Origin: Sphingomonadales bacterium
GTDB taxonomy: Bacteria > Pseudomonadota > Alphaproteobacteria > Sphingomonadales > Sphingomonadaceae
Assembly (NCBI GenBank): GCA_038228865.1
Contig: JBBROX010000001.1
Span: 368,657-432,656, forward strand
Direction of reading: 5' to 3'
Length of the DNA stretch: 64,000 bases
Position numbers and translations under genes: made by a program. Below are positions 11,534-35,612 of this stretch, piece by piece. The first letter of the stretch is position 1, and every line of letters begins with the position of its first letter. The notes beneath the pieces were generated by a model that was not told the DNA's origin, did no database searches, and saw nothing but the letters and a program-made list of their open reading frames with translations.

Positions 11534-11550
11534 AGTATGATTATGCAAGT
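11534..11550 (+). promoter_or_regulatory. Candidate island operator, copy 1 (AGTATGATTATGCAAGT)
   Basis: 27 bp upstream of the ATG at 11578; overlaps a plausible sigma70 -10 (TATGAT, 11536-41) with TTGCAA at 11512-17. Confidence 0.65.
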
Positions 11551-11577
11551 TTACGGCCATAATAACTTTAGGTGCTC

Positions 11578-14026: not shown

Positions 14027-14027
14027 G

Positions 14028-15726: not shown

Positions 15727-16887
15727 TTGAAAAACACCTATCTACACGATGCCGTCCGCACGCCGCGCGGCAAGGCTAAGCCCGATGGCGGCCTGGCGGG
15801 TTTCTCGCCGCAAGAACTGGTCCGGCAACAGGTCGATGCGCTGCGGCTGCGTGTCGGGGAGAGCGCCTCCAGCCCCGACATTCTGCTGCTGGGCTGCGTC
15901 GGGCAAGTGGGAACGCAGGGCGGCCATATCGCGCTTGTCTCCAAGTTGCATGCCGGCCTGCCCGATGCGACAGCAGCCCACTCGATTAACAACTATTGTG
16001 CCTCGGGCCTGTCGGCGATCGGTCAAGCGGCGGCGCTGGTCGAAATCGGACAGGCCGGGTCCGCTTTGGCGGGCGGCGTCGAGATGATGAGCCAGGTTCC
16101 CTTCATGGGCGACCGCGCGAGCTTTTATGAGGACGCGAGCTTCCCGCACCGTGCACGCTATATCCCGGTCGTGCTGGCGGCCGACCGCTTGGCCAATGCC
16201 GAAGGGATCGGTCGCGCCGAACTGGACATCGTTGCACTCGCGTCGCAGCGAAAGGCCGGTGCGGCTGAAGGCGACCGAGTCCTGCAACGCTCGCGGATCG
16301 CCACCGCAACGCTTTCCGGCGAAGAATGCATCCGCCCGGCGACCACTGCGGAGGGGCTGGCGGCGATGTCGCCATCCTTCGGCGGCTTGCAGGCTCAATA
16401 TGCCGATGCTCTGAACGGCGCGACATTCGAGCCGTTGCACTCGGTGTCGCACGCGCCACCGGTTTGCGACGGTGCCGGTCTGGCGCTGGTCGGTGGCAAG
16501 GATCTGACACCGAAGCCACGCGCCCGCATCCTTGCCTTTGCCGAGAGCGGCGGCGATCCGGAAGCCTCGCTGACGGCGGGCATCGCTGCGATGGAAAAGG
16601 TACTGGCGCGTGCTGGCCTGTCACTGGCCGATATGGACCGGATTGAGTTCATGGAAGCGTTCGCGGTGACCATCGCCAAGTTTCTGCGCGAATATCCGGT
16701 CGATCCGGAGCGGGTAAACGTGGGCGGTGGGCACATCGCCAAGGGACATCCGATGGGAGCGAGCGGCGCGATTCTGACATCGACTCTGCTCGACTGCCTC
16801 GATGCCTGTGATGGCAGCCTAGGCCTTGTCGTGTTGAGCGGCGCGTCGGGCGTCGGCGCTGCAATGATTGTCGAACGGCTGAACTGA
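15727..16887 (+). CDS. Thiolase-family protein lacking the C-terminal catalytic Cys
   Basis: NNYCASGL (first Cys), MEAFA and GHPMGASG present; the usual LCxGGG motif reads LSGASG. Confidence 0.85.
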   Translation: MKNTYLHDAVRTPRGKAKPDGGLAGFSPQELVRQQVDALRLRVGESASSPDILLLGCVGQVGTQGGHIALVSKLHAGLPDATAAHSINNYCASGLSAIGQAAALVEIGQAGSALAGGVEMMSQVPFMGDRASFYEDASFPHRARYIPVVLAADRLANAEGIGRAELDIVALASQRKAGAAEGDRVLQRSRIATATLSGEECIRPATTAEGLAAMSPSFGGLQAQYADALNGATFEPLHSVSHAPPVCDGAGLALVGGKDLTPKPRARILAFAESGGDPEASLTAGIAAMEKVLARAGLSLADMDRIEFMEAFAVTIAKFLREYPVDPERVNVGGGHIAKGHPMGASGAILTSTLLDCLDACDGSLGLVVLSGASGVGAAMIVERLN

Positions 16888-18606
16888 ATGACGACCGCGC
16901 TGAACGACCTGATCGCCAAACACGCGGGAACGCTGGCGGCGGCGATCGATGCAGTGGAGACCCGCAAGAACTGGAGCCCGTTCAGGGATTCGCCCAGCGG
17001 GAAATTCCATGCGCCCGGCGCATCGGAGGCGGGCAAGGCAGCGTTCGACGCGCAGCTGGGCCGACCTTTCGATCTCGACCAGCCCGGCATTGTCGCCCGC
17101 ACCGGTGCCGAGGTGTCGCCCTTTACCCGCCAACCGCTTGGAATCGATTATCCGGTCAGCGATCCCGCCATGCTCATCGCCGCAGCCAGCGCGGCGATGG
17201 CCGGTTGGCGCAAGGTCGCGCCCGAGGCGCGCATCGCCCTATGCCTCGAAATGGCCACGCAACTCTACGCGCGCAATTTCGAGATGGCGCACAGCGTGAT
17301 GCACGTCGCCGGTCAAAGCTATACGCAAGCCTTCAGCGGCAGCGGTCCCAACGCGCTCGATCGCGGGATCGAAGCGCTGGCCTATGCGGCGAAAGCCATG
17401 CGCGATGTCGTGCCCAGCGCGCGGTGGAACCGCACGTTCGGCAAAGAGGACGTGTCGCTCGACAAGCATTATACCCTGGTCCCGCGCGGGATCGGCCTGG
17501 TCATTTGCTGTGCGTCATTCCCCACTTGGAATGCCTATCCGGCGATGTTTGCAAATCTGGCGACCGGCAATCCGGTGATCGTCAAACCGCATCCAATCGC
17601 CGTCTTGCCGATGGCGATCGTGGTGCAGCAATGCCGCAGGGCTCTTGCCGCATTCGGCTGTGATCCGAACCTCGTAACACTGGCGGTCGACACACTCGAC
17701 GCGCCGGTCGCGCAGCATTTCATCGACCACCCCGCGGTGCAGATCATCGATTTCACCGGAAGCCCGCGTTACGGCGGCCATCTTGAGCGGACGATTACCG
17801 GCAAATTGTTGTTCACCGAAACCGCCGGGCTCAATTCGGTCGTGCTGGACTCCTGTGACGATCTGGCGGCGACCGCCACCGCGATTGCGCGCGCAACGAG
17901 CCTGTTTTCGGCGCAAATGTGCACCAGTCCGCAGAACGTCTATGTGCCGGCAAAGGGAATCGAGACCGGCAGCGGGCATGCCTCTTTCGACGAGGTGGCG
18001 ACGGCACTGGTGGATGCGATCGACGCGATTGCCGACAATCCAGTAATGGCGGCAGGTATCATGGGGGCAGTACAAGCCGAACAGAGTTGCGAGATCGTGC
18101 GCGGGCTCGCCGTTCGCGCTGCGCAAACGCCCGGAGCACGCATCCTGCGCCAACCGACGCCTTATCTGCATCCCGATTTTCCCGATGCGCGAACGATGAC
18201 GCCGCTTGTGGTGGCGCTGCCTGCCGACAATGCGGCGCTCTACGCTGAGGAACACTTCGGCCCGGTCCTGTTTGTCATCGCCGCTGCCGATGGCGATGAT
18301 GCGGTGAGCGAAGCTACCGCTCTGGCGCATACGCACGGTGCGATCTCGTCCTATCTCTATTCCACGGACGACGCGTTCATCGACCGATCGCTCGACGCCT
18401 ATGCGGAATCGGGCATGAACCTATCGATCAACCTACACGGGGCAATGTGGGCCAATTTTGCCGCTGCCTATAGCGATTATCACGTCACTGGCCTGAACCC
18501 GGCGGGTAATGCGTGCCTCGCCGACCTGGCCTTCGTCACGAACCGTTTCCGTATCGTCCAGCACCGTCGTCCTGCGGTGGGGGAAGGGGAGAGCCATGCC
18601 GCATAG
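16888..18606 (+). CDS. PaaN-type aldehyde dehydrogenase family protein
   Basis: CCASFPTWNAYP, LATGNPVIVKPHP, FTGS, ETAGLNSVV, SLFSAQMCTSPQN, EEHFGP, AAYSDYHVTGLNPAGNA, as I recall the PaaN clade. Confidence 0.85.
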   Translation: MTTALNDLIAKHAGTLAAAIDAVETRKNWSPFRDSPSGKFHAPGASEAGKAAFDAQLGRPFDLDQPGIVARTGAEVSPFTRQPLGIDYPVSDPAMLIAAASAAMAGWRKVAPEARIALCLEMATQLYARNFEMAHSVMHVAGQSYTQAFSGSGPNALDRGIEALAYAAKAMRDVVPSARWNRTFGKEDVSLDKHYTLVPRGIGLVICCASFPTWNAYPAMFANLATGNPVIVKPHPIAVLPMAIVVQQCRRALAAFGCDPNLVTLAVDTLDAPVAQHFIDHPAVQIIDFTGSPRYGGHLERTITGKLLFTETAGLNSVVLDSCDDLAATATAIARATSLFSAQMCTSPQNVYVPAKGIETGSGHASFDEVATALVDAIDAIADNPVMAAGIMGAVQAEQSCEIVRGLAVRAAQTPGARILRQPTPYLHPDFPDARTMTPLVVALPADNAALYAEEHFGPVLFVIAAADGDDAVSEATALAHTHGAISSYLYSTDDAFIDRSLDAYAESGMNLSINLHGAMWANFAAAYSDYHVTGLNPAGNACLADLAFVTNRFRIVQHRRPAVGEGESHAA

Positions 18607-22802: not shown

Positions 22803-25115
22803 TTAGAATTTCGCCGAGACCTCAAGGCCGAAGGTACGCGGCGGCGCGTAGGACGACATCTCGTCGCGGAAGAACACGATGATGTTGGTCCGGTAGAGCT
22901 TGTCTGTCAGGTTCTTGGCAAAAACCGACACGCTCCAATTCTTCTCTGGCAGCTTGAAGGTCAAGCGACCGTCGAGCGTCCCATAGCCTTCTTCCCATGT
23001 CGTGTTCTCGGGCGCCCAGGGCATACGGCCCTGATAGCGATAGGCGAGTCTTGCCGTCAGGGCGTCTTCCCAGTCGCCACTGCCGATCGAGGCTTCCGCG
23101 CCGACGGCGAACTGGAATTGCGGCGTACGCTGCAGCTTGTTGCCCGAGTTGTTCACGCCTGCGAAGACGAAATCGTCATATTTTGCATCGAGATATGTGC
23201 CGCTGACCCATGCGCGAATGCTCCGGGTCGGGGCAAACTGGAGGTCGGACTCGATACCCTTGATCGTGGCACTCGCAGCGTTGCTGATGACGTTGCACAG
23301 GCACGAGGCAAGCGTCTGCTGAACCTGAAGATTTTTGTACTTCATCAGGAACAAGGCCGAGTTCCAGCGGAGCTTGCGATCGAACAATTCAGCCTTGTAG
23401 CCCACTTCGTAATTGGTCACTGTCTCTGGATTGTACGCGATCGTGGCGGCAACCCCGGACGATGCGTTGTTCAGGAAACCGCCGCCTTTAAACCCCTGGG
23501 AATAGGTGGCGTAGGCCAACATGGTATTGCTGGGCGTCCAGCTGATCGTCACCTGCGGCGTCGTGTCGCTCCATGACTTGCCATAGGGCACGTTGAAGTT
23601 TTGCGTCAGCGGCGTCAGCGGGGTTGGGTCTGCGGGATTGTACCGGTCGCCGGTGGCTACGATAATGCCCTGCTGATTACCGGATTTGCGATCGCGCGTG
23701 TAACGGATGCCGGCGTCGATCTTCAGCGTATCGGTCAGCTTGTAACCCAGTTGGGCGAACACGGCGTAGTCTTCGTTCTGGCCGCTATCGATCCATTGCG
23801 ATTCACCGCTGAGCGTCGGCAGAACGAGCGATTCGCCCCAGAAACGGTTACGTTGAGTGACGTTGCTCTTCAGGTAAAATGCCCCGACGATCCAGCTCAG
23901 CTTCTGGTCGTCGTCCTTCGACTGCAACCGGAGTTCCTGGGTGAAGTAATTGCCCGTTTCCCGGAAGTTGACCGGTTCCGCAAACAGCAGGCTAGACCCC
24001 ACGCTGGCCAGTTCCGCTGCTGTGAAATTGAACCCGTTGTTGGGGCCAAGTCCGGTCTGGTCATAGAGCGTGTAGGACTTGTTGTTCCGGTACCCGGTAA
24101 TGCTGGACAGGGTAATCTTGTCCCCCAAGTCCTGAGACAGTTTCAGGATGAGGCTGTAGTTGTCGCGTGTCGCACTCTGCGGAGACGGTGCCGCGTCGCC
24201 GGCGAACTGCGGCCAGACGGCATAGCTTTCGCGCGGGCCCAGCGTTCGGCCCAGACGCGCGCTGATCAGTTTGCGCGTGCCCGACCAGATGGTCGCACCC
24301 GTGGCCAGCGTCGGGCTCTGAACTCCGACGCGGTTCACGCCGTTATCGCTGGTCTGCGAAAAATCAGCGATGAAAAGTCCCTTGAAACCGCTGCCTTCGG
24401 GCTCGTAACCCAGTTGCAAGCGTCCCTGCGTCGAATCCAAATTCTCGAGATCGACGTTGTGAAGAAGATCGCGCGCATAGCCCGAATGTTTGATCGCCTG
24501 AAACGAGATGCGACCCGACAGCCCATCGGCGATCCGGCCGTTGATGTAGCCGGTGAACTGCCGAAGGTCGTAATTACCGATCGTGAGCGTGGCCGAGCCC
24601 GAATTGGTTTGCGTCGGCGGGTTGCTGATCACGTTCACGGCGCCACCGGCGACGTTCTTGCCCAAAAGCACGCCCTGCGGGCCGCGAACGACCTCGATAC
24701 GCGCGACGTCGTAGAAGGCGGTGTTGAGCACGCCCGAACGACCTGCATAGACGTCATCGACAAACGTCGAAACGGACTGGTCAGCGGTCGGCCCGGTCAG
24801 ACGCGTATTCACCACACCGCGAATGTTGATTTCATTGGCTTGCGGCGAATTCGACGTGAACGAGATGCCCGTCATCGTCTGAGCAAGATCGTTGATCGAA
24901 ACCACGCGGTCCTTTTCGAGTGTTGCGCCTGAAACGGCAGAAATTGCCAGCGGCGCATCTTGCACGTTCTCAGCACGCTTTTGTGCCGTGACGATGATGG
25001 TTTCGAGGTTGGAAGTTTCGGCAGTTTCCGGCGGCGTCTGGGCCATTGCCGGAAACGCGATACCGAGGGCTGCGAGCGTCACGACGGACGACGCGCGTAA
25101 AGGCACTTTTCTCAT
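22803..25115 (-). CDS. TonB-dependent receptor
   Basis: Signal peptide; TonB box LETIIVTAQKR; plug motif RIEVVRGPQG.L.GKN..GGAVN; NLTDKLY and C-terminal Phe. Confidence 0.96.
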   Translation of the reverse strand: MRKVPLRASSVVTLAALGIAFPAMAQTPPETAETSNLETIIVTAQKRAENVQDAPLAISAVSGATLEKDRVVSINDLAQTMTGISFTSNSPQANEINIRGVVNTRLTGPTADQSVSTFVDDVYAGRSGVLNTAFYDVARIEVVRGPQGVLLGKNVAGGAVNVISNPPTQTNSGSATLTIGNYDLRQFTGYINGRIADGLSGRISFQAIKHSGYARDLLHNVDLENLDSTQGRLQLGYEPEGSGFKGLFIADFSQTSDNGVNRVGVQSPTLATGATIWSGTRKLISARLGRTLGPRESYAVWPQFAGDAAPSPQSATRDNYSLILKLSQDLGDKITLSSITGYRNNKSYTLYDQTGLGPNNGFNFTAAELASVGSSLLFAEPVNFRETGNYFTQELRLQSKDDDQKLSWIVGAFYLKSNVTQRNRFWGESLVLPTLSGESQWIDSGQNEDYAVFAQLGYKLTDTLKIDAGIRYTRDRKSGNQQGIIVATGDRYNPADPTPLTPLTQNFNVPYGKSWSDTTPQVTISWTPSNTMLAYATYSQGFKGGGFLNNASSGVAATIAYNPETVTNYEVGYKAELFDRKLRWNSALFLMKYKNLQVQQTLASCLCNVISNAASATIKGIESDLQFAPTRSIRAWVSGTYLDAKYDDFVFAGVNNSGNKLQRTPQFQFAVGAEASIGSGDWEDALTARLAYRYQGRMPWAPENTTWEEGYGTLDGRLTFKLPEKNWSVSVFAKNLTDKLYRTNIIVFFRDEMSSYAPPRTFGLEVSAKF

Positions 25116-25160: not shown

Positions 25161-25177
25161 ACTTTTATAATCGTACT
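25161..25177 (-). promoter_or_regulatory. Candidate island operator, copy 2 (minus strand AGTACGATTATAAAAGT)
   Basis: 14/17 match to consensus; 45 bp upstream of the TonB receptor ATG. Confidence 0.6.
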
Positions 25178-25200
25178 TGCACCCCTAACTAAGGCGCACG

Positions 25201-25217
25201 AGTCCGGTTGTGCAAGT
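25201..25217 (+). promoter_or_regulatory. Candidate island operator, copy 3 (AGTCCGGTTGTGCAAGT)
   Basis: 13/17 match; in the divergent TBDR/SDR intergenic region. Confidence 0.45.
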
Positions 25218-25311
25218 GATTTTTGTGCGCAAAAAAACCGCAATGCTCAACCCGAAATGTGAGTGAGACAGAAAACTGCGAGACGGCTGCCGAGATTGCA
25301 TCCAGCTAGAC

Positions 25312-25328
25312 AATATGATTATGCAACT
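25312..25328 (+). promoter_or_regulatory. Candidate island operator, copy 4 (AATATGATTATGCAACT)
   Basis: 15/17 match; 81 bp upstream of the SDR ATG at 25410. Confidence 0.62.
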
Positions 25329-25409
25329 CAGGCGCATTGTCGTTTTTGCGCTGCGGCGTTCAGCAAATCGGCCGCAATTTCAAACGTTTGCTCAGATGTA
25401 GGCGCGGAT

Positions 25410-26375
25410 ATGGCAATTCCAAAAATGCTGCAGGGCCTTTCAAAGACACTCAATTTCTACGGTCGGTTTGCGCCATCGTTCACGCGGATCGGCTATGTAG
25501 CCCGCTTGCTTCCGCTCCGCCCGGTATCTGCCGATTTCACCGGTCAAAGCTGGCTGGTGACGGGTGCGACCGGCGGTATCGGCAAGGCGACGACGCTTCT
25601 CGCTGCATCCAAGGGCGCACGGGTATTGGCGGTGGGTCGCAACCGCGATGCGCTGGCGGCATTGGTCGCCGAAAGCGCGGGTCTCAAAGGCTCGGTCATC
25701 CCGATCGAATGCGATCTATCCTCGATTGCGGCGATCGACGAGATGGCACGCGGCGGTGAGATTTCGACGCCCATCGATGTGCTGGTCAATAACGTCGGCA
25801 TCCTGAACCGCCTGTATTCCGAGACGTCCGAAGGCTTCGAAACGACCTATGCGACAAGCCTTCTGGGGCATTTCCATTTGACCGAGACGCTGGCCGAGAT
25901 CGGGCGTCTCGCCGACCGATCGGTTCTCATCAATGTGGCGTCGGGCGGCATGTTCAATGTGCCGCTCAAACTGCCGATGCTCAATCAGAAGGAGAAGGGG
26001 TTCAACGGTTTCGCATCCTATGCGTCGCACAAACGCGCTCAGGTGGCCCTGGCCGATTACTGGCGGGCCAAGTTCGGCGCGCTCAACCTGCGTGCCTATG
26101 CCATTCATCCGGGCTGGGCCGATACGGCCGGTGTGCAATCGTCTTTGCCGACATTCCGCAAAATCCTGCGGCCCGTCTTGCGCAACGCCGAGCAGGGGGC
26201 CGACACCATCATCTGGCTGGCCGCCGAACGGCCCGATGCAGTCGATGATCGCGTCTGGTTCGACCGCAAGGAGCGGACCACCCATCCGTTTCCACATACC
26301 AGACAAGCAATGACGACGGTACCCGATCTGGTCGCGAAGCTTGATGCCGACAGCAAGCGGGCGTTGGCTGGTTAA
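25410..26375 (+). CDS. SDR family oxidoreductase (DHRS12-like)
   Basis: ATG at 25410; TGATGGIG, VNNVG, YASHK, HPGWADT.G, GADTIIWLA. Confidence 0.88.
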   Translation: MAIPKMLQGLSKTLNFYGRFAPSFTRIGYVARLLPLRPVSADFTGQSWLVTGATGGIGKATTLLAASKGARVLAVGRNRDALAALVAESAGLKGSVIPIECDLSSIAAIDEMARGGEISTPIDVLVNNVGILNRLYSETSEGFETTYATSLLGHFHLTETLAEIGRLADRSVLINVASGGMFNVPLKLPMLNQKEKGFNGFASYASHKRAQVALADYWRAKFGALNLRAYAIHPGWADTAGVQSSLPTFRKILRPVLRNAEQGADTIIWLAAERPDAVDDRVWFDRKERTTHPFPHTRQAMTTVPDLVAKLDADSKRALAG

Positions 26376-26458: not shown

Positions 26459-26501
26459 AACAGGGCGGCGCGTCTCAACAGCGCAGCCTCGGGAGAGCGA
26501 T

Positions 26502-27731
26502 ATGGTCTATGTTCTGGGCGGGTGGCAGAGCGACTACGCAAAGAATTGGGATCGCCACGGTATGGAACTGGCCGATGCGTTCTCGGAGGTGGTCCAGAAC
26601 GGTCTGGAGTCCGTCCATCTCGAGCCATCCGACGTCGAAGTCGGGCATGTTGGCAATTTCGTTGGTGACCTGTTTGCGGGGCAGGGCATGCTTGGCGGCT
26701 TTTTCGGGCTGGTCGATCCGGCTTTCAACGGATTGCCAACATCGAGGCACGAAGCCGCCTGCGCTTCGGGGAGTGTGGCGATTCTGGCGGCAACGGCCGA
26801 CATCGAGTCGGGCCGGTACGATCTGGCCTGTGTTGTCGGACTCGAGCTAATGCGCAACGTTTCGGGAGTCATTGCTGCGCAGCATTTGGGTGCTGCCGCT
26901 TGGGCCGGTCATGAATATCAGGATGCCACCTACGCGTGGCCGCGCGCTTTTTCCGATCTCGCGGAGGAATATGACCGGCGTTATGGGTTGTCCTATGAGC
27001 ATCTGATGGCGATTTCGCGAAACAACTTCGCCAATGGCAAGCTCAATCCCAATGCCCAGACGCGCAGCTACCAGTTTACGCCTGAAGCCTTCACGGCATC
27101 CGACGAGCACAATCCAGTTATTGAGGGGCGGACGCGCAAGATGGATTGCGGCCAGGTCAGCGATGGTTCGGCCGTGGTGTTTCTGGCGTCTGCAGAGCGC
27201 GCCGCAGACTATGCCCGCAAGCGTGGCATTCCGCTTGATTCCATACCGCGCATCACAGGCTGGGGACATCGTTCGGCCCCTATTTCCTACAGCGCGAAAA
27301 TCCGCGCGAGCGAAAACGAACCCTACGTGTTCCCGCAGGTCCACCGGGCAGCGATCGAAGCACGGACGCGCGCCGGACTGGCCGATGTGGCGCAGATCGA
27401 CGCGTTCGAAGTACACGACTGCTTTGCGATGACCGAGTATATGGCGATTGACCACCTCGGCATTACAACGCCCGGCGAGGCGTGGAAAGCGGTGGAAAGC
27501 GGTTCGATCGAAATCGGTGGCGCCAATCCGATCAACGCCTCGGGCGGCCTGATCGGTATGGGCCATCCGGTCGGCGCGACGGGCGTCCGCATGGTTCTCG
27601 ACGGCTACAAGCAGGTTACGGACACGGCCGGCGATTACCAGGTCGAAGGGGCACAGCGGCTGCAGACGCTCAACATCGGCGGGTCGACGACCACAACTGT
27701 GAGCTTCATCGTAGAAAAAATGGCGGCGTGA
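26502..27731 (+). CDS. SCP2-type thiolase (acetyl-CoA acetyltransferase family)
   Basis: RHEAACASGS, EVHDCF, GHPVGATG, TLNIGGS (SCP2-thiolase pattern). Confidence 0.9.
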   Translation: MVYVLGGWQSDYAKNWDRHGMELADAFSEVVQNGLESVHLEPSDVEVGHVGNFVGDLFAGQGMLGGFFGLVDPAFNGLPTSRHEAACASGSVAILAATADIESGRYDLACVVGLELMRNVSGVIAAQHLGAAAWAGHEYQDATYAWPRAFSDLAEEYDRRYGLSYEHLMAISRNNFANGKLNPNAQTRSYQFTPEAFTASDEHNPVIEGRTRKMDCGQVSDGSAVVFLASAERAADYARKRGIPLDSIPRITGWGHRSAPISYSAKIRASENEPYVFPQVHRAAIEARTRAGLADVAQIDAFEVHDCFAMTEYMAIDHLGITTPGEAWKAVESGSIEIGGANPINASGGLIGMGHPVGATGVRMVLDGYKQVTDTAGDYQVEGAQRLQTLNIGGSTTTTVSFIVEKMAA

Positions 27732-27795
27732 GCGACAGCGTTTTCGATTGCGCGGCGCAGTTCCTGCTTGCCGCCGATATCCGGATCGTCCTGCG

Positions 27796-29586
27796 ATGAC
27801 GGCGGCTTCCGCGCCGTTCAGAGACGTGAACTTCATGCCCGTCGATCTCGACGTTGCGGAGCATGAAGACGGCACCATCTCGTTGCGGACGAACCTGCCG
27901 CTTGAAGAATATGACGCCAATTTGCCTCGGGTCCTTGCCGCGCGTGCCGCGCTGGAAGGCGATAAGAAGGCGCTGGCGATCCGGAATGCTGCAGGGGTTT
28001 GGGAGCACACGAGCTACACGCACTTCAAACGCGACCTCGACGCGGTCACGCAGTGGTTGCTGGATAACATCCCGCGCGGAACGGCGATCCTGCTGATCGG
28101 TCCCAACACGCCCGCCTATGCGACCCTGACCTTCGCGGCCTATGCGGCCGGCGTCATCGTTTGTCCCGTAGGCATGGCCAGCCTCCAATCGGCGGCGGGC
28201 GAAGCGCGCTTGCAGCACGTCATTGCCAAGGCCAAGCCCAGCGCAATCTTTGCCGATGGGACGCTCGTCATCCAGCGGCTGATCGCCCATGTTGCCGATC
28301 CCTCGGTACTGATCATCGCACCCGACCCCGAGAGCTATTCCGGCGCCGTCGTCGCATGGACCGAGCTGGTCGGCACGACCGCCACGCCCGACGTCGCGGC
28401 GGCTATCGACAATTTGGATACGACCGTGCCGGCGTCGTACATGATGACGTCCGGATCGACAGGGTTGCCCAAGTTGGTCGCGACCTCACTGGACAATATT
28501 GCCGCTGTCACGATCCAGAGCACGATCATCTTCGGCCCCGAAGTCTATCAGGGAAACATAGTCGACTGGCTGCCGTGGCATCACGCTGCGGGGGCGGGGG
28601 TGCTGCGCACTACGCTGTTCAATGGCGGTAGCCTCTACATCGACGGCGGAAAGCCGATGCCGACATTGTTCGATGAGACGATCAGGAACCTCCGCGAAAT
28701 CCCGGTCCCGTACTTTGCCAACGTGCCGCAGGGCTTTGCCATGCTGGTCGATGCGATGGAAAAAGATGCCCAGCTGCGGCAGAGCTTTTTCCGGGATATG
28801 CGGCTGATGCTCTACGGCGGCGCGGGCCTGCCCCAGCCGGTCTACGACCGTCTGCAGGCGCTGGCCGTCGCGGAGACCGGCCACCGCATCCATATGTCGA
28901 GCGGCTATGGCATGACCGAGACGGTCACCGGCTGCATTGCCATCCATTTTCCGACGGACCGCGTCGGTATAGGCCTGCCGCCACCGGGGATCGAGGTAAA
29001 GCTGGTGCCCAACGGGAGCCGGTACGAAGTGCGCCTGCGTGGGCCGAACGTCATGATGGGCTATGTCGACGAACCCGAGCAGACGGCCAAGGCGTTCGAC
29101 GACGAAGGCTTTTACCGGACAGGCGACCTCGCCAATTTTCATGACCGCAACAATCCGGGCGAAGGTTTGTATTTCGCCGGCAGACTGGCCGAGGAGTTCA
29201 AACTGTTAACCGGCAGCTGGGTTTACGGTGGGCAGGTGCGCGACGCGGTCCTCGAACAGCTCGACGGCGATGTGTCGGAAATCGTGCTGTGCGGAGAGAA
29301 CCGGGAGTATCTGACGGTGATGGCGTGGCCGAAGTCCTCCGACGACGGCACGCTGCTCGCGCGCATCACCGAAAAACTGAAACTGTATAACGCGCGCGGC
29401 ACGGGAGCGTCGGTTGGTATCCGGCGCGTCGTACTTCTGGAATTGCCGCCCAATCCTGTTGGGGGCGAAGTTTCGGACAAGGGCACGATCAATCGCCGTG
29501 CCGTGCTAACCAACCGCGCCGACATCCTCGAACAACTCTATGCCGCTGATCCGGGCACGCACATCGGTATCGTCCAGGGAAACTAG
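27796..29586 (+). CDS. Feruloyl-CoA synthetase-like acyl-CoA ligase
   Basis: MTSGSTGLPK, DWLPWHH, SGYGMTET, RGPNVMMGY, FYRTGD, GRLAEEFKL.TGSWV, GEVSDKGTIN. Confidence 0.85.
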   Translation: MTAASAPFRDVNFMPVDLDVAEHEDGTISLRTNLPLEEYDANLPRVLAARAALEGDKKALAIRNAAGVWEHTSYTHFKRDLDAVTQWLLDNIPRGTAILLIGPNTPAYATLTFAAYAAGVIVCPVGMASLQSAAGEARLQHVIAKAKPSAIFADGTLVIQRLIAHVADPSVLIIAPDPESYSGAVVAWTELVGTTATPDVAAAIDNLDTTVPASYMMTSGSTGLPKLVATSLDNIAAVTIQSTIIFGPEVYQGNIVDWLPWHHAAGAGVLRTTLFNGGSLYIDGGKPMPTLFDETIRNLREIPVPYFANVPQGFAMLVDAMEKDAQLRQSFFRDMRLMLYGGAGLPQPVYDRLQALAVAETGHRIHMSSGYGMTETVTGCIAIHFPTDRVGIGLPPPGIEVKLVPNGSRYEVRLRGPNVMMGYVDEPEQTAKAFDDEGFYRTGDLANFHDRNNPGEGLYFAGRLAEEFKLLTGSWVYGGQVRDAVLEQLDGDVSEIVLCGENREYLTVMAWPKSSDDGTLLARITEKLKLYNARGTGASVGIRRVVLLELPPNPVGGEVSDKGTINRRAVLTNRADILEQLYAADPGTHIGIVQGN

Positions 29587-29592
29587 ACCTAC

Positions 29593-30387
29593 ATGGAAAT
29601 CGCGCATCTCTTTCTCGCCAATGCGGCCATTCTTGTCGCCGCGTTCGCCACGCTCTGGTTGATCTGTCTTGGTTTGAAGGATGTGACGCCGGTCGACAGT
29701 TCCTGGGCACTCGGGATGGTCGTCATGGCAGTCAGCACATTCTTGCAGACCGACGGCAATCCCGACCGCAAGCTCCTCCTGCTGACGTTATGCGCCGCAT
29801 GGGGCATCCGCCTTGGCTGGTACATGTTGTGGCGCTGGCGTCATCATGGGCCGGACCGCCGCTATGTGAAGCTGCTCGACAAGGCGAAGCAAAATCGCGG
29901 CTGGGGTTTCGGCAAGGCTTCGCTCCTGCTCGTCTTTGCCACCCAGGCACCGTTGCTTTTTATCGTCTGCCTGCCGGTTCAGCTCGGCCAGATCGACGCT
30001 GGCCCGGTCCTGGGCCCCATCGGCTATATCGGCGCGGCGCTGGCCATATTCGGGATCATCTTCGAATCGCTGGCGGATTACCAGCTCGTGCTCTTCAAGG
30101 CGGATGCGGCCAACACCGGTAAGGTGATGGATAGCGGCCTATGGCGTTACACACGGCATCCCAATCATTTCGGCGATGCCTGTGCGTGGTGGGGAATCTA
30201 CCTTGTTGCTGCCGAAACAGCGACGGGTGTCTGGTCGATTGTCGGGCCGATCCTGTTGACCTGGACGCTGATGAAATGGTCCGGTGCACCCACGGTCGAA
30301 GGCAGCATGCGCCGAAAGAAGCCCGACTATGAGGACTATATCCGGCGGACAGCAGCCTTCTTCCCCTGGCCGCCCCGGCAGGCATGA
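29593..30387 (+). CDS. DUF1295 / steroid 5-alpha-reductase-like membrane protein
   Basis: Multiple TMs; WGIRLG, DRRY, ESLADYQL, GLWRYTRHPNHFGD. Confidence 0.88.
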   Translation: MEIAHLFLANAAILVAAFATLWLICLGLKDVTPVDSSWALGMVVMAVSTFLQTDGNPDRKLLLLTLCAAWGIRLGWYMLWRWRHHGPDRRYVKLLDKAKQNRGWGFGKASLLLVFATQAPLLFIVCLPVQLGQIDAGPVLGPIGYIGAALAIFGIIFESLADYQLVLFKADAANTGKVMDSGLWRYTRHPNHFGDACAWWGIYLVAAETATGVWSIVGPILLTWTLMKWSGAPTVEGSMRRKKPDYEDYIRRTAAFFPWPPRQA

Positions 30388-30400
30388 TCGACGGTCGCGC

Positions 30401-31462
30401 GTGACGTACCAAGTCATCCAGTGGGCAACCGGCGCGATGGGCAGGACATGCCTGCAGGCCGTGATCGATCATCCTGCGATGGAGCTCGTCGGCCTGTACG
30501 TCTATAGCGAGGCAAAGGCAGGCAAGGACGCCGGCGCTATCGCGCGGCGCGACTCGGTGGGTGTCGTGGCTACTTCCGATATCGACGAAATCCTTGCGCT
30601 CGATGCCGATGTCGTCATCCACTGTGCGCGGATATTGCCGCCGTTTGGATCGCATGATGCGGAGATCATCCGGCTGCTGGAGAGCGGCAAGAACGTCATT
30701 AGCATCAATGGCTACAGCGATCCGGGGCGGTGGGACAGTGCGCGGCGTGCGGTGCTTGCGGCAGCGTGCGCAAAGGGTAACTCGACGCTCATGGGCGCGG
30801 GTCTCAATCCCGGGTTTGCGGCCGAGCAACTGGCCGTCGTCGCGACCGGGGCCTGTTCGCGTGTCGACCGGGTGGACATCACCGAATATGTCGATTGCCG
30901 CGCAGTCAAACATCCCGAATATGTCTTCGGCAGCCTCGGCTTTGCGTCCGATCCCGCAACGATCGATCCCAATGACGCCGACTGGGGACCCGCTGCCCTC
31001 ATGAACGGCATGTATCGCGAAGTGCTGTCGGCCATGGCAGAGCGGCTTAGCGTTCAGTTGGAAAGGGTTCAGACAGAACACCGTGTCTTCGCCGCAGCCA
31101 GCGATCTGGAAATCGCGGCCGGTGTGATTCCCCAAGGCCGCGTCAGCCACGTCAACTGGCGATGGGCGGGCTACGTCGGCGACCAGCGTCGGCTAACGCT
31201 ATCGATCCATTGGTTTATGGAAACGACACACCTTGCCAACGCGGCACCGCCGCTGTGGGAGATCGACATCGTTGGCCAACCTTGCGTACATTTGAAGATC
31301 GAGGTCGAGAAGCACCCGGAGGACCAGAGCCGGGTTACGGCCGAACAGCTCGGGCTGGCCGGTGCCGTGATCAATGCCATTCCGGTCGTCTGCGACGCGC
31401 CCAGCGGATTGTGTCTACGTCCGGTGGCTACACCCTATCGGGCAGACCTCGGCGGCTGGTAA
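30401..31462 (+). CDS. DapB-like Rossmann oxidoreductase (NAD(P)H-dependent amine dehydrogenase-like family)
   Basis: GTG at 30401; VIQWATGAMG, LLESGKNVIS, GAGLNPGF, VINAIPVVCDA.SG. Confidence 0.75.
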   Translation: MTYQVIQWATGAMGRTCLQAVIDHPAMELVGLYVYSEAKAGKDAGAIARRDSVGVVATSDIDEILALDADVVIHCARILPPFGSHDAEIIRLLESGKNVISINGYSDPGRWDSARRAVLAAACAKGNSTLMGAGLNPGFAAEQLAVVATGACSRVDRVDITEYVDCRAVKHPEYVFGSLGFASDPATIDPNDADWGPAALMNGMYREVLSAMAERLSVQLERVQTEHRVFAAASDLEIAAGVIPQGRVSHVNWRWAGYVGDQRRLTLSIHWFMETTHLANAAPPLWEIDIVGQPCVHLKIEVEKHPEDQSRVTAEQLGLAGAVINAIPVVCDAPSGLCLRPVATPYRADLGGW

Positions 31463-31470
31463 GCCTGGGT

Positions 31471-32379
31471 CTACGCCACCTCGGCATAGAATGCGGCAAA
31501 GGCTGCCTCGGCACCGGTGTGGGCACGAAGGCGATCCGCAGCGCCGATGTCGATGGCCCGTTCGGCCAGCCAAGCCGGGTCGTTCCCGTGGGGACCAACT
31601 AGCGCGCTTTCGACCGGGACGACGCGCTTGATATACTGACCTGCCGCCACCCACATGCTGCCAGTTTCCGTGCATTCCGGACCCGATAGCCATACCGCCG
31701 CCGCTGCCACTTCGTCCGGGCTCAATTTGGCATCCGGCGCGGCGTTGGTCCGGGTGGTCATGGTTGTCGCGGCATAGGGCATCAGGATGTTCACGAGGAT
31801 GCCATTGCGGCGCTGTTCGTGCGCGAGCGACAGAGCAAAAGCGTTCAGCGCGCCCTTCGACGCCGCATAGGCGGCCCTGCCTCGGACACCATAGACTCCG
31901 GCCGTGGACGAAACGAACAGGATGCGCGGGTTATCGGACTTCATCAGATACGGCAGCGCCGCCCGCACGATCGCGGTATTCGCAAAGAAGTTGATGGCCA
32001 TAACCTGTTCGAGGCCGCCATCGCTCAGCGTGCCCACCTTCTCGGCAGGCCCCTCGATCGCGGCGTTGAGAATCAGCGCATCCAGTCTCCCGAATTTATC
32101 GACTGCGGCATCGACCATCGCCACTGCGGCACCGGGCGCCTGAACGTCGTGATGATCCGCCGCCGCGCTCAATCCTTCCGCTGCCAGGTCCGCGACGATC
32201 TGATCGACGGGGGAGGGACCAGCGCCCGAAAACCTGTTGTTGATCAGGATTGCCGCGCCGTTGCGCGCGCAGGCTGTGGCGAAGGACTTACCCAGCCCTT
32301 TCGAGGCACCCGTTACCAGGATTGATCGGGCGCCGGGAAATGCGGTGTTTTGGTTGGTTGGCATGCCGTGAGTCTGCAT
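31471..32379 (-). CDS. SDR family oxidoreductase (MFE-2 / hydroxyacyl-CoA dehydrogenase-like)
   Basis: TGASKGLG, ILNAA, YAASKG, VNILMPYA.T.MT. Alternative start at 32364. Confidence 0.88.
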   Translation of the reverse strand: MQTHGMPTNQNTAFPGARSILVTGASKGLGKSFATACARNGAAILINNRFSGAGPSPVDQIVADLAAEGLSAAADHHDVQAPGAAVAMVDAAVDKFGRLDALILNAAIEGPAEKVGTLSDGGLEQVMAINFFANTAIVRAALPYLMKSDNPRILFVSSTAGVYGVRGRAAYAASKGALNAFALSLAHEQRRNGILVNILMPYAATTMTTRTNAAPDAKLSPDEVAAAAVWLSGPECTETGSMWVAAGQYIKRVVPVESALVGPHGNDPAWLAERAIDIGAADRLRAHTGAEAAFAAFYAEVA

Positions 32380-32384
32380 CCGGC

Positions 32385-32401
32385 AGTATGATCATGCAAG
32401 C
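32385..32401 (+). promoter_or_regulatory. Candidate island operator, copy 6 (AGTATGATCATGCAAGC)
   Basis: 15/17 match; spans the stop codon of the HxlR gene and lies directly upstream of the SDR. Confidence 0.6.
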
Positions 32402-33369
32402 GACAAGGCATCGTTTGTTGGTACCAATTTCGCGTCGAATCTGGCGCCGTCGATCTGGAGCGTAAACGCGACATCCTTCGCCTGAATCGGTACGCTGCAC
32501 TCGGAACAAACCACCTCCGGTTTCAGTGAATTCCCACACGCAGTGTGCGTCAGAAGGATCGGCGGACCTTCGGGCGAACCATAGTATTTGTCTCCCCATT
32601 CCATCAGCAGCAGCAAGGCCGGGAAATAGGCGGCGCCTTTACGTGTGGTCCGATATTCGAAGCGCGGCGGCGCGGACGCGTATTGGACCTGCTTGACGAC
32701 GCCGAATTCCTCCAGCCAAGCTAGTCGTTCAGCGAGGATATTGGTTGCGATCGCCGTGTCCTGGCGAATCTCCTCAAACCGGTGGATGCCAGTGAAAATC
32801 GACCGCATGATGAGACTGGCCCACCGATCCCCGAGCAGCTGGGCGGCCTGTTCAAAGATCCTGGAGCCATCTTCGGTGCTGGCCCGCTGTTGGCGACGGC
32901 GGCTGTAAATCGGTGCCATCCACCCGACTCCCGGCCCTTCTTTCCAGTCGATCTCGCCTATGTTGAACGACGTTTTGCAGTTGTGACACGACGGAACAGG
33001 CAGGAAGTTGTTCCCGCAAACCTCGTGTTTGAGCTCGACCGAAATATTGCTCGATTGCTCACCCCATTCTATTTCCCACCTAAGGAGAATGAGGGAAACA
33101 GGGTATAAGTCCCGACCCTTCTTGGTCAGAATATATTCGTATCGCGGGGGGCGAGTATTATAGAGTGATTTTTCCACCAGGCCGTTGGCAACGAGTTTTT
33201 TGAGGCGGTCGCTCAGCAACGCTCTCAGCAGCCCTGTGGCACTGAGAAAATCGTCGAACTTGCGGGCACCGAGCAAACTTGCTTCCAAAATGAGCAAGGT
33301 CGACGTGTCGCCGACCACTTCCAGCGCCCGCCAGATCGAACAGGTTTTGATGAGAGTTTTGCCGTGCAT
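32392..33369 (-). CDS. Tandem (double) HxlR/DUF24 winged-helix transcriptional regulator
   Basis: Two HxlR units: CSIWRALEVVGD..LLSDRLKKLV..PPRYEYILTKKG and QLLGDRWASLI..RFEEI..ILAERL..PPRFEYRTTRKG; each followed by HxxCG...CxxC. Confidence 0.9.
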   Translation of the reverse strand: MHGKTLIKTCSIWRALEVVGDTSTLLILEASLLGARKFDDFLSATGLLRALLSDRLKKLVANGLVEKSLYNTRPPRYEYILTKKGRDLYPVSLILLRWEIEWGEQSSNISVELKHEVCGNNFLPVPSCHNCKTSFNIGEIDWKEGPGVGWMAPIYSRRRQQRASTEDGSRIFEQAAQLLGDRWASLIMRSIFTGIHRFEEIRQDTAIATNILAERLAWLEEFGVVKQVQYASAPPRFEYRTTRKGAAYFPALLLLMEWGDKYYGSPEGPPILLTHTACGNSLKPEVVCSECSVPIQAKDVAFTLQIDGARFDAKLVPTNDALSLA

Positions 33370-33453
33370 TGGGGCGGTCTAACGCGGGTAGGGCCGGGGG
33401 TCTACGTGACGCCCTTGCAAGCGGGAAAGACAGGTCCATCCGGCCACGTCGTT

Positions 33454-33470
33454 ACTTGCATAGTCGAACT
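33454..33470 (-). promoter_or_regulatory. Candidate island operator, copy 7 (minus strand AGTTCGACTATGCAAGT)
   Basis: 14/17 match; between the divergent regulator and oxygenase paralog 2. Confidence 0.6.
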
Positions 33471-33516
33471 CGAGCGCGTAGGCGTGCGCGAAATTTGCTG
33501 CACATGGAGAGCGTGC

Positions 33517-34998
33517 GTGGATGTGCAATTTCTCGAGCCGGTAGGATCGTCGCTCAAGCCGACAAATCATCCTTATCTGACCGGACCTTGGACCCCCACT
33601 TTTACCGAAGCGACGGCAATCGATCTCGACGTCATCGAGGGTCGCATTCCCGACGACATCGACGGCATATATGTTCGAAACACCGAGAATCAGGTTCACC
33701 AGCCGCTGGGGAGTTACCACCCGTTCGATGGCGACGGGATGGTGCATGTCATCAGCTTCAAAAATGGGAAGGCCGACTACCGCAATCGGTTCGTGCGGAC
33801 GCGCGGTTTCGCCGCCGAGCAGGAGGCGGGCCAGTCGCTATGGGGCGGACTGATGGATCCTCCGGGCACGTCGCTGCGCCCGGGCTTCGGTGCGCACGGC
33901 GCACTGAAGGATTCCTCGAGTACTGATGTCGTCGTCCATGCTGGCAAGATCGTTTCCACTTTTTACCAGTGCGGCGAAGCCTATCTGCTCGATCCGGAGA
34001 CGGTCGAGCAGGAGGGTATTGCCGGTTGGGGTCCGCTCGACGGGATCTCGGCGCATCCCAAGGTCGACGAATCCACCGGAGAAATGCTGTTCTTCAACTA
34101 CGGCGTCTACGCGCCTTACATGCATTACGGTGTGGTCGACCGGACCGGCAAATGCGTCCATTACGTGCCGATCCCGCTCCCGGGACCGCGCCTGCCGCAC
34201 GACATGGCATTCACGAAAAACTACTCGATCCTGAACGATTTTCCGCTGTTCTGGGATGAGCAACTGCTGAAGCGAAATATTCACGCATCGCGCTTTCACC
34301 GGGACATGAAGTCCCGTTTTGCAATCATTCCCCGCTATGGTCGGACAGAGGACATCCGCTGGTTCGAAGCCGATCCGACCTATGTGCTGCACTGGCAGAA
34401 TGCCTATGAAGAGGGCGACGAAATCGTCCTCGACGGCTATTTCCAGGAAAATCCGACGCCCCGCCCGCTTGAGGACGCGCCCGACGGGATGGGGCATATG
34501 ATGGCCTTTCTCGACGAGCACAGCTTCCGACCGAAGCTTCACCGCTGGCGTTTCAACCTGAAGACGGGCGAGACGACCGAGCATGATCTCGACGACCGCA
34601 TCCTCGAATTCGGCATGTTCAACCAGCGCTATGCCGGCATTCCCTACCGCTATGCCTACAGCACCACGACTAAGCCCGGCTGGTTCCTGTTCAACGGGTT
34701 CGTCAAGCACGACCTGGAGACCGGCGAGTCGTGGGGCGTGAAGCTCCCCGACGGTGTTTTCGCCAGCGAGGCACCGTTCGTGCCCCGGATAAATGCGGCC
34801 GACGAGGATGACGGCTATCTCGTGAGTTTCCTCATCGACGAAAACAGCCAGACCTCAGAATGCATCCTGATCGATTGCAAGGACTTCGCTGCCGGCCCGG
34901 TGGTCCGCATCGCGTTGCCCCACAAGATTTGCAGCGGGACGCATGCCACATGGGCTGATCGGCGATTCATCGCGAACGGTTATCTATCACGTACGTAG
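33517..34998 (+). CDS. Carotenoid oxygenase family dioxygenase, paralog 2
   Basis: GGAGAG RBS before GTG 33517; HPFDGDG; four His motifs: SAHPKVD, LPHDMAFT, VLHWQNAY, GTHATW. Confidence 0.93.
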   Translation: MDVQFLEPVGSSLKPTNHPYLTGPWTPTFTEATAIDLDVIEGRIPDDIDGIYVRNTENQVHQPLGSYHPFDGDGMVHVISFKNGKADYRNRFVRTRGFAAEQEAGQSLWGGLMDPPGTSLRPGFGAHGALKDSSSTDVVVHAGKIVSTFYQCGEAYLLDPETVEQEGIAGWGPLDGISAHPKVDESTGEMLFFNYGVYAPYMHYGVVDRTGKCVHYVPIPLPGPRLPHDMAFTKNYSILNDFPLFWDEQLLKRNIHASRFHRDMKSRFAIIPRYGRTEDIRWFEADPTYVLHWQNAYEEGDEIVLDGYFQENPTPRPLEDAPDGMGHMMAFLDEHSFRPKLHRWRFNLKTGETTEHDLDDRILEFGMFNQRYAGIPYRYAYSTTTKPGWFLFNGFVKHDLETGESWGVKLPDGVFASEAPFVPRINAADEDDGYLVSFLIDENSQTSECILIDCKDFAAGPVVRIALPHKICSGTHATWADRRFIANGYLSRT

Positions 34999-35156
34999 AG
35001 GACGTGCCCCTGTGGGCAATTGCTCTCTGCCATCGGGTCGGTGCTGTTCCGCTCGGGCCCTTCGGCTGCTTGAGCCAGCGAGAAAAACTCTTGGCTTGTC
35101 ACGCCACAATAATGGACGAGAGTGCCATCGTCGGGACCTACCGGAGAGCAGATGGC

Positions 35157-35612
35157 ATGGCGGGATTGTGGTTTGAAGAACTCGCGGTGGGGCAGGTGTT
35201 CAACCATTCGATCCGCCGAACGGTCACCGAAACAGACAATGTCATGTTCTCGACGATGACGCACAACCCGGCGCAGCTTCACCTCGACGAAGATTATATG
35301 AAAGGGACCGAATACGGGCAGCGGATCGTCAATTCGGTCTTTACGCTTGGTCTGATGGTCGGAGTGTCCGTCGGCGATACGACGCTGGGCACGGCGGTGG
35401 CCAATCTAGGTTGGGACGAGGTGCGTTTTCCCAAGCCCGTGTTTCACGGCGACACGCTGCATATCGTCACCGAAGTGATCGAGCTGCGCGAGTCGAAGTC
35501 TCGTCCCGATGCCGGGATCGTGACGTTCCTGCACAAGGCGTTCAATCAAAGAGACGAGCTGGTCGCATCCTGCAAGCGGTCGGGCTTGCAGCGCAGGAAA
35601 CCCGCCGCATAA
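35157..35612 (+). CDS. MaoC family (hot-dog) dehydratase
   Basis: GLWFEEL.VG, RTVTETDN, HNP..LHLD, PVFHGDTL; GGAGAG RBS. Confidence 0.88.
   Translation: MAGLWFEELAVGQVFNHSIRRTVTETDNVMFSTMTHNPAQLHLDEDYMKGTEYGQRIVNSVFTLGLMVGVSVGDTTLGTAVANLGWDEVRFPKPVFHGDTLHIVTEVIELRESKSRPDAGIVTFLHKAFNQRDELVASCKRSGLQRRKPAA

Follow-up and report, generated by a model that had tools for sequence, protein, structure and literature searches.

SCP2-thiolases are divided into type 1 and type 2, the latter defined by the absence of a fused SCP2 lipid-transfer domain. Described type-2 enzymes include those of the trypanosomatids Trypanosoma brucei (PDB 4bi9) and Leishmania mexicana (3zbg; EC 2.3.1.9), and the T. brucei enzyme produces acetoacetyl-CoA for sterol synthesis, working mainly in the synthetic direction (PMC5993337). 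The mammalian type-1 enzyme, SCPx, takes 2-methyl-branched substrates (PMC3406046). In Mycobacterium tuberculosis, the neighbouring genes Rv0914c (thiolase) and Rv0913c (oxygenase) appear in the searchable literature only in lists, tables or annotations: among genes up-regulated in starved bacilli (PMC3916317), as a host-dependent fitness locus in the case of Rv0913c (PMC10468300), and among the hits of a genome-wide association study (PMC9363015). Our literature searches found no described oxygenase-thiolase pathway. Here, we analyzed a 64,000-nucleotide stretch of a Sphingomonadales genome (GCA_038228865.1, contig JBBROX010000001.1, positions 368,657 to 432,656), hereafter the window, which encodes a thiolase, P0001, together with two oxygenases of the RPE65 family, CCO1 and CCO2.

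Our best explanation, to which we give a probability of about 60%, is that P0001 is a working Rv0914c-type SCP2-thiolase that cleaves a 3-oxoacyl-CoA derived from the product of the oxygenase, under the control of an HxlR-type regulator. The thiolase-oxygenase pair is ancient and has been kept closely together in both Actinomycetota and Pseudomonadota. This analysis adds evenly drawn samples of two bacterial families, a tandem HxlR regulator as a third partner in both phyla, matching subclades in the thiolase and oxygenase trees, and the assignment of the window thiolase to CCO2. The three central genes are as follows.

26502..27731, + strand: type-2 SCP2-thiolase P0001 (ATG start, 409 amino acids), identified by Pfam, NF004936 and the catalytic residues Cys87, Asn182, His305-Asp-Cys307-Phe and His355
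33364..34998, + strand: CCO2, predicted alkene-cleaving oxygenase of the RPE65 family, Rv0913c clade, identified by its identity to the M. tuberculosis oxygenase and by trees
12482..14026, + strand: CCO1, second oxygenase of the Rv0913c clade, 66% identical to CCO2 and 53% to the M. tuberculosis oxygenase

A type-2 SCP2-thiolase with a full catalytic set

The thiolase gene is preceded, a few bases 5' of its ATG, by a ribosome-binding site (GGGAGAG, 26491-26497), and its translation contains all six strings that an earlier note on this DNA had read there (VLGGWQSDYAKN, RHEAACASGS, EYDRRYGL, NPNAQTR, HDCF and TLNIGGSTTTTVSF). The Pfam profiles Thiolase_C_1 (91.5 bits), Thiolase_C (43.2) and Thiolase_N (38.1) all exceeded their cut-offs. 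The NCBIfam model NF004936/PRK06289, for which the curated cut-off is 375 bits, matched at 639.5 bits over model positions 4-403 of 405. P0001 is the sole member of this family in the source genome (next match, 24 bits), and close homologues were found in Sphingomonas sp. SUN039 (87% identity) and Caulobacter (approximately 76%).

The best solved relatives of P0001 are the trypanosomatid type-2 enzymes 4bi9 and 3zbg (E 1e-44 to 3e-41 over approximately 380 residues). Cys87, within RHEAACASGS, aligns with the nucleophilic cysteine of EGACASG in both structures; His305-Asp-Cys307-Phe aligns with the HDCF loop of 4bi9, which reads HDAF (Cys to Ala) in the variant entry 4bia; and His355, within GHPVGATG, aligns with the GHP motif of the solved relatives, while Asn182 sits in NPNA. 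When 61 family members from both phyla were aligned, the residues Cys87, Asn182, His305, Asp306, Cys307, Phe308 and His355 proved invariant. The classical C-terminal CxG cysteine is absent from P0001, which has NIGGS at that place. The SCP2 lipid-transfer domain is likewise absent, as the thiolase domains extend to residue 405 of 409 with no other Pfam match. Because these catalytic residues align and are invariant in the 61 members, P0001 is predicted to be an intact, catalytically complete type-2 SCP2-thiolase with the full Cys-Asn-His/Cys(HDCF)-His set.

The likeness to described enzymes has limits. The trypanosomatid thiolases share with P0001 the nucleophilic cysteine, the HDCF cysteine, the GHP histidine and the lack of an SCP2 domain, but the match is distant (156 bits, compared with 417-928 bits inside the bacterial family), their N-terminus is longer and they have no oxygenase context. 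Mammalian SCPx belongs to the same subfamily (6hsj, 'SCP2-thiolase type-1', E 2e-25 to P0001); it differs in carrying a C-terminal SCP2 domain and is far more distantly related, and its acceptance of 2-methyl-branched substrates may carry over to the bacterial family by analogy.

The active site also bears on whether P0001 could be a retro-aldolase or another C-C lyase, as are the steroid aldolases Ltp2 and Sal, which have an SCP2-thiolase-like fold. This fold is reported to have been repurposed for retro-aldol cleavage of CoA esters (PMC12329534), and the compact modules described below have no dehydrogenase to make a 3-oxo group, as a lyase reading would allow. However, aldolases of the Ltp2/Sal type have lost or repurposed the thiolase cysteines and work with a DUF35 or hydratase partner, whereas P0001 keeps both cysteines, which are invariant, as are both histidines, in the 61 sequences. 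NCBIfam models of the lipid-transfer-protein/Ltp type scored only 61-136 bits against cut-offs of 424-469, and no DUF35 or hydratase partner was found by Pfam among the 20 main open reading frames (ORFs) scanned in the surrounding island. We therefore regard a lyase as very improbable.

The NCBI name for the family, 'acetyl-CoA acetyltransferase', is probably too generic, and the M. tuberculosis annotation 'lipid carrier protein' matches nothing in the thiolase sequence. As a side observation, four related genomes of 4.5 Mb (L088/G610, L092/G578, L093/G652 and L094/G595) carry one TGA within the frame around the thiolase match, which is probably a mere upstream extension of the frame.

The counterpart pair of M. 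tuberculosis

The earlier note had proposed a close resemblance of P0001 to Rv0914c and the adjacency of the latter to the Rv0913c oxygenase. Both points were borne out. With the thiolase of a close Mycobacterium (G627) as seed, a homologue search brought up M. tuberculosis proteins of 412 amino acids, one of them named 'keto acyl-CoA thiolase'. P0001 and this protein share 51% identity over 409 residues (E 2e-138), and RHEAACASGS, EYDRRYGL, NPNAQTR and HDCF are identical between the two. A search seeded with the thiolase of Rhodococcus sp. WMMA185 gave no M. tuberculosis protein among the matches listed. At approximately 1.02 Mb of the M. tuberculosis assembly GCA_000679375.1, the gene order is BCCT (betP), PE, PPE, thiolase and a 502-amino-acid RPE65 gene, as expected for the betP-PE7-PPE14-Rv0914c-Rv0913c (Rv0917-Rv0913c) layout, and the thiolase gene ends one base before the oxygenase gene.

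Searching the M. tuberculosis proteins into the source genome, in this one direction, singled out the window genes. The thiolase matched P0001 at 417 bits (next match, 20), and the oxygenase matched the two window oxygenases at 580 and 570 bits. CCO1 and CCO2 are 53-54% identical to the M. tuberculosis oxygenase; for CCO2 the alignment covers 468 residues, and the four iron-binding histidine motifs (HPFDGDG, AHPK, PHDMAF and GTH) are visible in both proteins. These sequence comparisons support P0001 as the counterpart of Rv0914c. Mycolicibacterium vanbaalenii and M. peregrinum, used as stand-ins for M. tuberculosis, gave a similar picture: NF004936 matches scored 612-715 bits and other thiolases at most 182, and in both species (G001, 702 bits; G003, 715 bits) an RPE65 oxygenase gene comes next after the thiolase on the same strand, no more than 100 bp away. 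M. vanbaalenii has two NF004936 copies, one of them beside the oxygenase.

The two pairs share the NF004936 family and the oxygenase clade, but differ in their surroundings. The M. tuberculosis pair has no companions of its own, with PE/PPE genes on one side and unrelated genes on the other. In the sphingomonad, the thiolase heads its own operon, and the 24-kb island around it also contains genes for uptake, CoA ligases, reductases and regulation. The source genome has two RPE65 genes, both inside the window: CCO2, 5.6 kb downstream of the thiolase, and CCO1, 12.5 kb upstream of it.

Co-occurrence and linkage in two phyla

To quantify the association, we drew even samples of 201 Sphingomonadaceae genomes and 151 GTDB Mycobacteriaceae genomes. 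In Sphingomonadaceae, the oxygenase clade was defined by at least 56% identity to CCO2, other oxygenases of the family being at most 44% identical. The thiolase occurred in 21 and the oxygenase clade in 35 of the 201 Sphingomonadaceae genomes, and all 21 thiolase genomes carried the oxygenase clade (Fisher p 1.5e-19, with kin that are not independent). The two genes lay within approximately 12 kb on one contig in 18 of these 21, with a median gap of 1.7 kb. Five genera (g1, g279, g281, g315 and g341) included both states, and in them the thiolase and the oxygenase clade were jointly present or jointly absent.

The Mycobacteriaceae behaved alike. The thiolase was found in 33 and the oxygenase clade in 34 of the 151 genomes, and every thiolase genome had the oxygenase (33/33). 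The pair lay within 5 kb in 32 of the 33 and within 200 bp in 27 (median gap, 58 bp); 24 of these 27 close pairs had the thiolase upstream on the same strand. Adjacent thiolase and oxygenase genes were also seen in further Actinomycetota (4/4) and in Pseudomonadota of another class (2/2). Among six other Alphaproteobacteria with the thiolase, one had the genes adjacent; in the rest they were on other contigs, on fragments, or the oxygenase was absent.

Taken together, every thiolase-positive genome of the two family samples (54/54) also carried the oxygenase clade, and with all samples pooled the genes lay within approximately 12 kb in 57 of 66 thiolase-positive genomes, compared with a chance expectation of 1-2% (calculated for a 3-Mb genome with two oxygenase genes). 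Pairing of this degree greatly exceeds chance, and it was observed in two phyla, Pseudomonadota and Actinomycetota. The earlier note's proposal that the pair is kept together in Actinobacteria and Alphaproteobacteria therefore holds. Its further step, to a conserved unknown pathway, stands in part: a linked pair is conserved in two phyla, but the pathway itself is inferred and the nearest oxygenase in the window is several kilobases from the thiolase.

The same counts speak to whether P0001 might be a general housekeeping acetoacetyl-CoA thiolase whose closeness to the oxygenase has no functional meaning, as its generic database name and the 5.6 kb between the genes in the window might suggest. 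The family is rare, occurring in 6 of 301 genomes of a class-wide sample of Alphaproteobacteria and not being found in the 181 Bacteroidota or 181 Bacillota genomes sampled. Neither of the two other genomes sampled from the genus of the source organism (G324 and G428) has it, and both also have no oxygenase of the Rv0913c clade. With the invariable company of the oxygenase and a linkage so far above expectation, these observations already contradict a housekeeping role, and we give it hardly any credence. Since G324 and G428 are without both genes, the island (11500-35700) is an accessory block in its genus, gained in the source genome or lost in those two.

One locus of the Actinomycetota sample stood apart. 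The 9.9-kb contig L113 (G889:C135) encodes a thiolase and an oxygenase 61-63% identical to those of the window, compared with 50-57% for other Actinomycetota; it is either an inter-phylum transfer or a mis-binned contig.

Matching subclades and the partner of the window thiolase

We next asked which of the two oxygenases belongs with P0001. In the thiolase tree, Mycobacteriales and Alphaproteobacteria split on one branch (support 92), and the M. tuberculosis protein falls within the NF004936 clade, grouped with G627 and G612. The main clade of the oxygenase tree (support 100) comprises two sphingomonad subclades and a single mycobacterial clade (99). Subclades of the one tree correspond to those of the other: thiolases of compact operons cluster, and so do their oxygenases. 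CCO1, which lies in a compact NMO-CCO-ligase-thiolase operon, groups with the oxygenases of such operons. The window thiolase groups with thiolases adjoining CCO2-type oxygenases, and on this phylogenetic ground we assign it to CCO2. The CCO1 operon itself has no SCP2-thiolase. Six relatives (L050, L053, L056, L059, L060 and L064) carry one between the acyl-CoA ligase gene ACS-a and the classical-type thiolase gene thlB, exactly where the window has a gap of 4 bases (ACS-a ends at 15722, thlB starts at 15727).

The CCO2 frame as listed begins at a GTG (33364) six bases inside a divergent HxlR gene, and homologues align only from approximately residue 50. For this reason, and because a GGAGAG precedes it, the GTG at 33517 is probably the true start. 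Starting there, CCO2 would share with the HxlR gene a promoter region of 147 bp that holds ACTTGCAT at 33454.

The closest solved relatives of CCO2 are plant CCD1 carotenoid 9,10(9',10')-dioxygenases (PDB 9m6z, 9m3e and 9luz; E 4e-63). Both belong to the RPE65 family, but the bacterial clade is distinct, with no more than 36% identity to further oxygenases of the family encoded in the same genomes; it is tied to CoA-dependent enzymes, and its function is predicted from sequence. Oxygenases of a sister clade (43-44% identity to CCO2) are likewise found beside NF004936 thiolases (L101, L086, L095, L096 and L105); in L101, from the sphingomonad G312, one thiolase is flanked by both oxygenase clades.

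The island and its recurrent neighbours

We fetched 62 neighbourhoods and clustered their ORFs into families. Gene calling based on G+C content at third codon positions misread the pair in four very GC-rich loci (L046, L080, L083 and L085), for which adjacency was taken from genome-search coordinates. The thiolase was recovered in 60 of the 62 loci, the oxygenase in 51, the tandem HxlR in 40, ACS-a in 33, thlB in 25 and the NMO-family gene in 21. The features of the window island, in addition to the three listed above, are as follows.

11572..12579, + strand: NMO-family flavoenzyme, candidate enoyl-CoA reductase (21/62 loci)
13986..15722, + strand: acyl-CoA ligase ACS-a (33/62 loci)
15727..16887, + strand: classical-type thiolase thlB (25/62 loci), elsewhere often directly adjoining the SCP2-thiolase
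16888..18606, + strand: PaaN_2-type aldehyde dehydrogenase (TIGR02288, 594 bits; cut-off 579)
22803..25115, - strand: TonB-dependent receptor, divergent from the SDR-thiolase operon
25175..25217, no strand: two inverted copies of ACTTGCAC, candidate operator, between the receptor gene and the SDR-thiolase operon
25263..26375, + strand: SDR oxidoreductase upstream of the thiolase, candidate 3-hydroxyacyl-CoA dehydrogenase
27748..29586, + strand: acyl-CoA synthetase ACS-b, PRK12582-like (below cut-off)
29593..30387, + strand: DUF1295 membrane protein with a steroid-reductase/ICMT-like fold, a frequent companion in Alphaproteobacteria
30284..31462, + strand: oxidoreductase of the DapB_N / 2,4-diaminopentanoate-dehydrogenase-like type, an occasional companion
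31471..32379, - strand: SDR oxidoreductase
32392..33369, - strand: tandem (double) HxlR-type regulator, divergent from CCO2
35004..35612, + strand: MaoC-type (R)-specific enoyl-CoA hydratase, last gene of the island, not conserved in other loci

The tandem HxlR, ACS-a, thlB and the NMO-family gene each occur in both phyla. The tandem HxlR was present in 12 of 22 sphingomonad loci (the window included) and in 25 of 34 mycobacterial loci, which makes it, in both phyla, the third gene conserved with the pair. The typical order in sphingomonads is HxlR< TonB-dependent receptor< NMO> CCO> ACS-a> SCP2-thiolase> thlB>, and in Mycobacteriales HxlR< thlB< SCP2-thiolase> CCO> NMO> ACS-a>. Of these recurrent families, M. 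tuberculosis retains the pair only. Free-living bacteria have the pair embedded in larger islands under the control of a regulator, which also encode an importer, CoA ligases, a flavin reductase and a second thiolase. These fuller islands give a concrete, testable pathway hypothesis for Rv0913c/Rv0914c, for which Caulobacter, sphingomonads and fast-growing Mycolicibacterium could serve as harmless models.

The layout around P0001 is a second, looser alphaproteobacterial one (SCP2-thiolase> ACS-b> DUF1295> ... CCO). ACS-b starts 16 bases past the thiolase stop, and the two genes are also neighbours in Caulobacter segnis and at 7 of the 21 other Sphingomonadaceae loci. The C. segnis locus shows the thiolase, ACS-b and DUF1295 part of this layout, with no oxygenase within the 10 kb fetched. 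Caulobacter vibrioides, which served as a control genome, encodes members of both the thiolase and the oxygenase family. The SDR gene at 25263..26375 is not conserved near the thiolase in other loci. Enzymes of the TIGR02288 PaaN_2 family act on an unsaturated acyl-CoA semialdehyde in phenylacetate breakdown; the window member sits in the oxygenase island without other paa genes.

The 8-mer ACTTGCAY has six matches in the 64 kb. Four of them fall in three island promoter regions (11543, 25175, 25210 and 33454), in which approximately 0.02 matches would be expected. Those at 11543-11550 and 33454-33461 lie in the promoter regions of the two oxygenases, and 25175 and 25210 form the inverted pair. 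Other sphingomonads share the ACTTGCA motif only in part; some of them have it 5' of oxygenase or receptor genes. This distribution fits ACTTGCAY sites as a candidate operator of the tandem HxlR. A promoter and terminator scan gave nothing above shuffled sequences; a TTGCCA-N15-TATAAT arrangement upstream of the thiolase has a short spacer and is not relied on.

A proposed pathway

The conservation of thiolase and oxygenase across two phyla points to an undescribed lipid-breakdown route, in which the most likely role of the thiolase, as we infer it, is thiolysis of a 3-oxoacyl-CoA, probably 2-methyl-branched, from the cleavage product of the oxygenase. In the sphingomonad version, a lipophilic polyene or isoprenoid-like compound would enter through the TonB-dependent receptor, and the oxygenase would cut one of its C=C bonds to give an aldehyde. 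The PaaN-like dehydrogenase could then oxidise the aldehyde and the two ligases form the CoA ester, which the MaoC-type hydratase and the SDR enzymes (elsewhere, housekeeping enzymes) might hydrate and oxidise to a 3-oxoacyl-CoA. Finally, the SCP2-thiolase would carry out the 2-methyl-branched rounds, freeing propionyl-CoA, and thlB the unbranched ones. The tandem HxlR may turn the genes on through ACTTGCAY-type sites.

Several features of the island agree with this scheme. Mammalian peroxisomal branched-chain beta-oxidation uses a MaoC-type hydratase and an SDR dehydrogenase, which in the SCPx pathway act together with the thiolase, and all three kinds of enzyme are encoded in the sphingomonad island. 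An acyl-CoA dehydrogenase was not among the Pfam matches of the 20 island ORFs scanned, in agreement with substrates that have the 2-enoyl-CoA form as soon as they have been cleaved, oxidised and activated. An isoprenoid polyene would give alternating unbranched and 2-methyl-branched 3-oxoacyl-CoA and could thereby account for the presence of an SCP2-type and a classical thiolase together, SCP2-type thiolases being those known to accept 2-methyl substrates (PMC3406046). Plant CCD1 yields a C14 dialdehyde product, and a dialdehyde of this type would likewise require alternating unbranched and 2-methyl-branched rounds.

The same module, with the same thiolytic role, could instead serve an aromatic alkene, such as a stilbenoid or phenylpropanoid from lignin or plant phenolics, with the thiolase ending a CoA-dependent, beta-oxidative shortening of the side chain. 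Lignostilbene dioxygenases are indeed the second-best solved relatives of CCO2 (E 3e-51) and its second NCBIfam match, sphingomonads and Mycobacteriales are generally known to degrade aromatic compounds, and the PaaN_2-type dehydrogenase stems from an aromatic pathway. Yet CCO2 scored 227 bits on the lignostilbene dioxygenase models, against a cut-off of 800, and plant CCD1 is closer; no ring-cleavage or aromatic funnelling genes were found among the Pfam-scanned ORFs of the island; and lipocalin, NTF2 and DUF1295 proteins, all among the island companions, suggest a greasy substrate. We consider an aromatic substrate unlikely.

The direction of the reaction is a separate matter. The thiolase might condense rather than cleave, building by Claisen chemistry acetoacetyl-CoA or a longer 3-oxoacyl-CoA for an oxygenase-linked biosynthetic product. 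The T. brucei enzyme is 7-fold more active in synthesis and feeds the formation of 3-hydroxy-3-methylglutaryl-CoA (HMG-CoA; PMC5993337), and the NCBI family name points the same way. The companions of P0001, however, are uptake and breakdown genes (TonB receptor, CoA ligases, aldehyde dehydrogenase and hydratase), there are no HMG-CoA synthase or polyhydroxyalkanoate genes nearby, and Rv0914c rises together with beta-oxidation genes in nutrient-starved M. tuberculosis (PMC3916317). A condensing role thus seems quite improbable.

Thiolysis of an oxygenase-derived 3-oxoacyl-CoA, which we prefer, must nevertheless be weighed against several points. The closest tested relative, the T. brucei SCP2-thiolase (E 1e-44), is mainly a synthetic acetoacetyl-CoA thiolase (PMC5993337). 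The hydratase and dehydrogenases of the window are not conserved in other loci, so that the compact modules have no obvious route to the 3-oxoacyl-CoA. Fourteen Sphingomonadaceae genomes carry the oxygenase clade without the thiolase, the ACTTGCA operator motif was not seen in mycobacterial loci, and M. tuberculosis makes no carotenoids (PMC5133782). The activity and substrate of both the thiolase family and the oxygenase clade are, moreover, deduced from their sequences.

A more specific and rather doubtful version of the pathway can be offered tentatively: the thiolase-oxygenase-HxlR trio might form the conserved core of an undescribed bacterial pathway that consumes carotenoid- or retinoid-derived polyenes as CoA esters, in which case Rv0914c-Rv0913c, the pair left in a species that makes no carotenoids, might act on host retinoids or carotenoids. 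If this is true, the fuller sphingomonad island would list the steps that are missing around the M. tuberculosis pair.

IS6110 sequences in public assemblies

The loci of M. vanbaalenii, M. peregrinum and other Mycobacteriales were reached by a genome scan with an IS6110 primer. The exact primer sequence also occurred on contigs of 0.5-1.8 kb in assemblies labelled Bacillus subtilis, Streptomyces, Metamycoplasma, Puia, Arthrobacter and others (L005, L008-L010, L016, L020, L021, L023, L026-L028 and L033-L035). These short contigs look like DNA of the M. tuberculosis complex contaminating public assemblies.

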